A DNA stretch of 5,055 nucleotides from the sequence record EF120459.1. One strand, 5' to 3'. This stretch comes from Enterobacteria phage CL707. Position numbers and translations under genes: made by a program. This document shows, piece after piece, positions 1,820 through 2,318 of the stretch. The notes under the pieces were generated by a model. The model made no database searches. It was not told the DNA's origin and was given only the letters and a program-made list of their open reading frames with translations. Positions within the stretch are counted from its first letter, which is position 1; each line of letters begins with the position of its first letter.

Positions 1820-2146
1820 TCAAATAAGTGGTTTGCTGCCTAATTTCATTTTCTGTCGACCAACACAAGTCACACCCATTTCACTGCGTGGCTTGCTGTA
1901 CCATGTGCGCTGATTCTTGCGCTCAATACGTTGCAGGTTGCTTTCAATCTGGTCGTGGTATTCAGCCAGTACCGTAAGGTCTATCGGATTCAGTGCGCTT
2001 TCTACTCGTGATTTCGGTTTGCGATTCAGCGAGAGAATAGGGCGGTTAACTGGTTTTGCGCTTACCCCAACCAACAGTGGATTTGCTGCTTTCCATTGAG
2101 CCTGTTTCTCTGCGCGACGTTCGCGGCGGCGTGTTTGTGCATCCAT
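1820..2146 (-). CDS. N: Antitermination protein N, lambda-like with a variant C-terminus
   Basis: Translation from the ATG at 2146..2144 gives MDAQTRRRERRAEKQAQWKAANPLLVGVSAKPVNRPILSLNRKPKSRVESALNPIDLTVLAEYH..., matching lambda N including the arginine-rich RNA-binding motif. The sequence upstream of the ATG reads ACAGGAGAATCCAGATGGAT as in lambda. The last ~22 residues (RSEMGVTCVGRQKMKLGSKPLI) differ from lambda N. The ORF-track start at 2197 is an in-frame upstream extension, not the real start. Confidence 0.93.
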   Translation of the reverse strand: MDAQTRRRERRAEKQAQWKAANPLLVGVSAKPVNRPILSLNRKPKSRVESALNPIDLTVLAEYHDQIESNLQRIERKNQRTWYSKPRSEMGVTCVGRQKMKLGSKPLI

Positions 2147-2318
2147 CTGGATTCTCCTGTCAGTTAGCTTTGGTGGTGTGGTAGGTGGGAGACCCATTTC
2201 GACCTGCTTCGGCCGACTTCAATTCGGCAATAGTTCCGCAGGCCTCGCCGCTTTACGTGCGACATATTCCCATCCATGAACCCTTCACCACACCCCAAAG
2301 CCTTCTGCTTTGAATGCT

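Follow-up and report, generated by a model that had tools for sequence, protein, structure and literature searches.

In the N protein of bacteriophage lambda, NusA is bound by the central region and RNA polymerase by the C-terminal region, residues 73–107 (PMC3526286; PMC8632103), the latter making its contact near the RNA exit channel (PMC3526286). Lambda N can reportedly do without its last 14 residues, and the same review describes the C-terminal regions as the most variable part of lambdoid N proteins (PMC3526286). Upstream of the gene, the stretch of leader that separates nutL from the Shine-Dalgarno sequence is described as highly structured in the passage of PMC5725501 that cites Wilson 1997/2002, where RNase III is stated to modulate the repression of N translation, and a passage of PMC5371410, citing Steege 1987, places the lambda N leader among the targets of this enzyme.

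The wild lambda-immunity phages of Degnan et al. 2007 (HK542, HK544, HK244, mEp332, mEp234, HK106; EF120455-61) share with the DNA analysed here the immunity region and mosaic flanks, and their GenBank records carry annotated "boundary sequence" features. Two of them, HK542 and HK544, also possess the same N allele (97–98.6% identity). They differ from the present locus in their leaders, which contain other cassette types (short in HK542, long in HK544), and in the replacement of rexAB by other genes.

Organization of the immunity region

The window, by which we mean the whole stretch of 5055 bases that was analysed, is the immunity region, including the immunity-left part, of a lambda-immunity lambdoid prophage. 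It resembles lambda in gene order, pL/oL, boxB, the ribosome-binding site of N and the lower 14 bp of the leader stem. It differs in its neighbours: where lambda has sieB/ral and rexAB, the window has a 147-aa ORF and a BstA homologue.

A nearly full-length copy of IS10/ISVsa5, with its transposase on the minus strand, occupies positions 1..1317; it is inserted directly left of a conserved linker and terminator, and the left edge of the window falls within it. When the entire window was compared to Rfam at a permissive threshold, the antisense RNA-OUT of IS10 (1204..1273, 98.8 bits) was the sole match, and the N leader has no Rfam family. The linker (1319..1379, minus strand), defined by alignments and a terminator scan, includes a terminator-like hairpin at 1379..1360. 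It displays 95–100% identity in lambda, HK544, HK542, Louie, mEp234, mEp043, STEC1587 and phiv205-1, and is thus common to phages whose genes downstream of N differ.

In the position of lambda ral/orf28/sieB the window contains an ORF of 147 codons (1368..1811, minus strand), which had no match in Pfam, NCBIfam, PADLOC or PHROGs. The suggestion, made from the sequence alone, that the gene downstream of N is not ral is therefore borne out. The RefSeq name "Nmad5 family" was rejected for this ORF, as it belongs to another, 207-aa gene of STEC1587. The span 1319..1900, which includes the ORF, is 98.3% identical in DNA to phiv205-1, and 1338..2191 is 98.6% identical to an IMG/VR locus (L083).

Gene N (1820..2146, minus strand) was defined from its translation and the ORF list, with its ATG at 2146..2144 and its stop codon at 1822..1820. 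It is preceded by a leader (2147..2383) that includes nutL (2319..2349, minus strand), which was located by alignments and a stem-loop scan. The boxB element (2319..2333) is identical to that of lambda, and boxA lies at 2341..2349. The first base of boxA (window 2349) is polymorphic among near-identical leaders, the RNA of the window and of HK544 having G, that of lambda C, and those of HK542, mEp043 and others U. Promoter pL and its operators (2383..2460, minus strand) were assigned by promoter scan and by lambda alignment and annotation; the -35 hexamer is at 2418..2413, the -10 hexamer at 2395..2390 and the start point at about 2383 (aligned to lambda 35582), and the interval also contains operators oL1–oL3.

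Beyond oL3 a tImm-like terminator is found at 2611..2632. The sequence 2461..2632 displays just 83%, patchy identity to lambda and is closer to the STEC1587 prophage (98%); this suggests additional small-scale exchange. Directly downstream of cI (3635..4348, minus strand), in place of lambda rexA/rexB, lies a 301-aa ORF (2643..3548, minus strand) homologous to the abortive-infection defence protein BstA [PADLOC 1.3e-105; PHROG 6287, 6e-133]; the gene also occurs in several E. coli prophages with lambda immunity. To the right are cro (4449..4649) and a cII allele other than that of lambda (4768..5046; Pfam Phage_CII, 9e-45). Identity to lambda ends at 4770, three bases into cII, which makes one more mosaic junction, located at the start codon.

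The N gene and its 3′ end

Judged by its sequence features, the 108-aa product of N is a lambda-type antiterminator. It matches Pfam PF11438 (N36) over residues 2–36 [1.5e-26], lambda N in PDB 6GOV [2e-58] and PHROG 271, and a cognate nut site, with both boxA and boxB, is present in the leader. Residues 1–64, which include the arginine-rich boxB-binding motif, are identical to lambda N. The same is true of the central region predicted to bind NusA, approximately residues 34–47 of lambda N, an assignment in line with PMC3526286 and with what Mogridge et al. 1998 reportedly found. In the region predicted to bind RNA polymerase (73–107), residues 73–86 are identical, and residues 87–108 are homologous (13/22), aligning end-to-end with chain N of 6GOV. 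The sequence-only reading had termed the C-terminal region of N NusA-interacting. That label is to be avoided for the tail, since it is the C-terminus that binds RNA polymerase and the central region that binds NusA (PMC3526286; PMC8632103).

Pairwise and global alignments to lambda (NC_001416; N, nutL and leader at 35037..35582) reveal a conserved block at 1890..2180 (minus strand; 285/291 identical), which extends from N codons 1–86 through the ribosome-binding site into the 3′ arm of the leader stem, most of which it includes. Within it, 251 of the 257 bases of 1890..2146 are identical (97.7%), residues 1–86 differing from lambda N only by K65D, and so are all 34 bases of 2147..2180, that is, the ribosome-binding site ACAGGAGAATCCAGATGGAT and the adjoining leader. 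At 1820..1889, the last 22 codons and the stop, identity falls to 36/70 (51%) with a 3-nt indel; in protein, 13 of these 22 residues are identical (59%), and the N of the window is one residue longer. The contrast in identity between tail and body is highly significant (Fisher p 1e-20), and the maximum chi-square breakpoint within N, position 1890, was reached in 0/2000 permutations. The tail is a diverged homologue of that of lambda, not foreign sequence. The first description of this DNA had N lambda-like for roughly 85 residues, the segment upstream of it as in lambda, and its final 22 or so residues different; the alignments agree with it on all three points.

The 3′ end found in the window (1820..1889, minus strand; codons 87–108 and stop, ending ...RSEMGVTCVGRQKMKLGSKPLI) is the common one. 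A search with it matched 255 phage records, 106 of which covered 80% or more of the query. The version in lambda matched 22, including 12 copies of lambda itself, and in annotated records at least 97% identical it adjoins sieB. The N gene of the window is thus the predominant allele and not an odd hybrid, and it is lambda that carries the rare tail. As a whole gene, without internal breakpoint, it is 97–98.6% identical in HK544, HK542, mEp043, Louie, 683R2 and several E. coli prophages. In IMG/VR we found 549 relatives of N, and the best 80 of these 549 are 97–99% identical in protein over all 108 residues.

The end of N also belongs to a segment shared more widely than the gene itself. Positions 1808..1873, which run from the end of N across an 8-nt spacer into the beginning of the next gene, are 95–98.5% identical over HK97, 933W and mEp234 (98.5% in HK97/933W, at locus positions 1531..1596), where this DNA is a relic after the stop of their unrelated N gene. 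In HK97/933W the relic of the lambda-type N 3′ end amounts to 62 nt; their own N terminates at locus position 1593, within 1531..1596, by a TGA that is inside the relic and out of frame. These three phages, which have an H-19B-type N, resemble the window in this relic and in the leader cassette with the upper stem (2168..2300, 97%), and are unlike it in nutL and in N protein (34–35% identity, unrelated).

The N body of phage phiv205-1 belongs to a different type (47% identity), but the phage shares the N 3′ end to about 1900 (98%), and in protein alignment the same 25-residue tail (about 27 codons in the DNA) is attached to this different body. In the CH4794 prophage of E. coli the switch occurs at about 1868. 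By comparison with other phages, four different junctions fall within 1868..1904, and the sequence shared at the N joint is GGCTTGCTGTA (1890..1900).

The sequence-only reading placed recombination breakpoints inside N and its leader instead of at gene boundaries. This is supported in part. Joints do exist there, as phiv205-1, HK97/933W and CH4794 demonstrate, but they exist only relative to lambda, HK97/933W and phiv205-1. Uniform identity to a single reference phage, which that reading regarded as telling against a mosaic, is indeed observed: phages Louie (PQ850616) and vB_EcoP-683R2 (ON470594) are collinear with the window through N, the ribosome-binding site, the stem arms, the HK97-type cassette and nutL (97–97.6% over 1808..2384). 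They differ from it in having another immunity region from 2385 on and other genes downstream of N.

The leader hairpin and its variable top

Between the conserved parts of the leader, positions 2181..2287 are only 30% identical to lambda, that is, unrelated, and measure 107 nt versus about 95 nt there. The difference from the flanks is again significant (Fisher p 2e-28). Upstream in the transcript, 2288..2383, which carries boxB and boxA, is 94% identical, and pL/oL (2384..2460) is identical at 76 of 77 positions. A divergent leader middle at about 2180..2290 between conserved nutL boxB and pL/oL had been anticipated from the sequence, and the alignments confirm it.

The divergent piece corresponds to a cassette of the HK97/933W type (2183..2286, minus strand). 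A query spanning it (2175..2295) matched Louie and 683R2 without a single difference (100%), and HK97, 933W, mEp234, HK106 and many Stx phages at 96.7%; for 2168..2300 the values are 100% for Louie/683R2 and 97% for HK97/933W.

Based upon minimum-free-energy folds and covariation, the cassette is framed by a 5′ arm at 2287..2302 (minus strand; RNA GGCUUUGGGGUGUGGU) and a 3′ arm at 2166..2182 (minus strand; RNA ACCACACC-A-CCAAAGCU). The 5′ arm, GGCUUUGG-GGUGUG.., pairs with the 3′ arm, ..CACACC-A-CCAAAGCU, just ahead of the ribosome-binding site, in a basal helix of 16 bp with one bulged A, plus three pairs below an internal loop. For the window both the minimum-free-energy and the centroid folds predict the pairing of 2287..2302 with 2166..2182 (z-score -3.7), and the same long-range helix is predicted for lambda. 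The basal stem is common to the predicted leader folds of the window, lambda and 11 other phages and prophages; HK544, HK542, mEp043, STEC1587, GDSC2239PM, CH4794, HK97, 933W and mEp234 combine it with unrelated tops. The variable leader piece 2183..2286 is the apical part of a conserved long hairpin, a feature that the sequence-only reading had overlooked.

Sequence changes in the arms support the helix. Counted in the register of each type, nine of the 16 pairs are changed on both sides, examples of arm covariation being GGGGUGUGGU/ACCACACC, GGGAUUGGAU/AUCCAAUC and GAGUAGCGCG/CGCGUUACUC. In a fixed alignment (A2), which serves as a conservative check because the HK542-type rows lack the bulged A and stand one column off, 90% of cells were paired versus at most 49% with the partner slid, and the covariation score was reached in 0/500 shuffles; the sequences are related to each other, and the conserved ends of the arms served as anchors for their extraction. 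The top two pairs are swapped in a compensatory manner, G-C and U-A in the window versus U-A and G-C in lambda, and the apical 104 nt above them are unrelated. The lowest pairs differ, likewise compensatorily, between the window and HK97/933W/mEp234 (GAAC.../...GUUC versus GGC.../...GCU).

In our reading this 16-bp helix corresponds to the site at which RNase III processes the leader of lambda N. That site reportedly modulates N-mediated repression of N translation (Steege et al. 1987; Kameyama et al. 1991; Wilson et al. 1997, 2002). By analogy, RNase III would presumably also cleave the helix in the present phage.

The diversity of hairpin tops was assessed in 74 IMG/VR viral contigs whose N is 97–99% identical to that of the window. 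At least seven unrelated cassette types are represented (27, 15, 12, 12, 5, 2 and 1 loci), with the stem kept in every representative. The types display no detectable mutual similarity and range from about 60 to 200 nt in length. In these 74 loci they combine with almost every one of seven immunity-side and 12 downstream-of-N types. Since the cassettes reassort with flank types on both sides, a nearly invariant N sits between recombination-prone junctions. One IMG/VR cassette (L078 type) has about 50 nt at each end in common with the STEC1587/L030 type and a different middle, an instance of nested mosaicism.

These data bear upon the possibility that nothing was exchanged, and that point mutations simply accumulated in situ in the N tail and the middle of the leader, where constraint was relaxed, the remainder of N staying conserved. 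The homology of the two N tails (13/22 residues identical), the reported dispensability of the last 14 residues of lambda N (PMC3526286) and the apparent lack of constraint on the hairpin top would all suit such a history. It does not account for identities that fall, over the space of a few bases, from 97.7% to 51% and 30%, for the recurrence of the "diverged" versions at 97–100% in phages with unrelated N bodies or immunity regions, or for leader cassettes that are mutually unlike and vary from about 60 to 200 nt. It is contradicted by the presence of the same tail DNA on the unrelated N body of phiv205-1 and after the N stop codon of HK97, and we judge it highly improbable.

An ORF of 37–44 codons (2164..2298, minus strand) runs through the leader hairpin, its stop 19 nt before the N start codon, and its equivalent in phage Louie is annotated as a hypothetical protein. 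One might therefore regard the cassette as a small inserted gene or mobile element and not merely as a structural hairpin top, particularly as cassettes behave like discrete insertions or replacements. Of the four differences from HK97, two are synonymous and two non-synonymous, and the remaining cassette types are unrelated in both sequence and length. Both borders of the cassette, moreover, lie at matching heights of the helix and change compensatorily, which fits a constraint on RNA structure. The ORF is probably non-coding, and an inserted gene or element is a very unlikely identity for the cassette.

The hairpin top might instead be a cassette that is hypervariable, exchangeable and functional in its own right, setting the level of N translation or its dependence on RNase III, or being released by RNase III cuts in the stem as a phage-specific small RNA, with the inverted-repeat arms serving as recombination handles. 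We mention this as a speculation that is unlikely to be correct.

Origin and meaning of the patchwork

No single record in the phage and complete E. coli collections contained the whole window, the best E. coli genome covering 82% of it in four pieces. The nearest relative changes along the sequence: phiv205-1 for 1319..1900; HK542/HK544/mEp043 for 1809..2172/2191; Louie/683R2 for 1808..2384; HK97/933W for 1808..1873 and 2168..2300; and lambda/HK542/STEC1587 for 2288/2296..2632. Identity changes abruptly against lambda, phiv205-1, HK97 and CH4794, both alternative alleles occur elsewhere in other combinations, and a short shared sequence is present at each joint (CTTTGGTGGTGTG, CACACCCCAAAG and GGCTTGCTGTA).

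Could the patchwork be a contig chimera, assembled from two lambdoid prophages of the same host? IS10, a typical place for a contig to break, contains the left edge of the window, and, as noted, the whole window is in no single phage or complete E. coli record. Each junction, however, was found independently in finished genomes or other contigs, which argues against a chimera. N with the HK97-type cassette and the lambda-type nutL is also present in Louie, 683R2 and five IMG/VR contigs; the 147-aa ORF with N in phiv205-1 and L083; and the stretch from nutL-pL-oL to tImm in HK542, HK544 and STEC1587. We consider an assembly artefact extremely improbable.

In our opinion the early-left operon of the window is very probably a new assortment of modules that already circulate in E. 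coli lambdoid phages. The junction between N and the next gene and the 22 codons that close N would jointly constitute a widely shared boundary segment, to which different N bodies (lambda, mEp235/phiv205-1 and HK97/H-19B types) and downstream accessory (moron) genes may have been joined by recombination. The lambda tail is a rarer, diverged version of this segment, next to sieB in annotated records. The transcript between nutL and the N ribosome-binding site forms a long hairpin, taken to be the RNase III site that modulates N translation, which is presumably constrained only at its base, so that its apical 60–200 nt could serve as a freely exchangeable cassette. The leader of the window is itself a hybrid, with the lowest pairs of lambda type and the upper stem and top of HK97/933W type. 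The two leader crossovers fall in cores of 12–13 nt present in all types, CTTTGGTGGTGTG (2168..2180) and CACACCCCAAAG (2289..2300), which are the two complementary strands of the helix. Joints inside N and its leader may persist because both places tolerate them: N can largely do without its extreme C-terminus, and the top of the hairpin is unconstrained.

The exchanges themselves we attribute, by inference, to homologous or short-homology recombination. Experimental work, in the passages of PMC2327257 and PMC3945230 that deal with this point, reports that phage recombinases join diverged sequences. At 12–13 nt the shared cores are short for RecA-type homologous recombination, and symmetric junctions could also be obtained from illegitimate events followed by selection for a working helix.

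The patchwork in the N region is ordinary lambdoid mosaicism, or module-swapping, of a kind already documented. All of the alleles and junctions are already in deposited phages, the N and leader arrangement being that of Louie and 683R2, and the finding is to that extent already known and of little consequence for new biology. It bears out that module exchange among lambdoid phages takes place at short conserved sequences, which can lie within genes and regulatory RNAs. It also indicates that lambda is not a typical representative of its own N allele, and that a "mosaic junction" may merely reflect which reference was chosen when lambda is the only one compared. What looks modestly new is the hairpin top as a multi-allelic cassette with helix-preserving borders. 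With its conserved RNase III-type stem and many unrelated tops, the leader hairpin offers a natural set of variants for testing the role of the top in the control of N.
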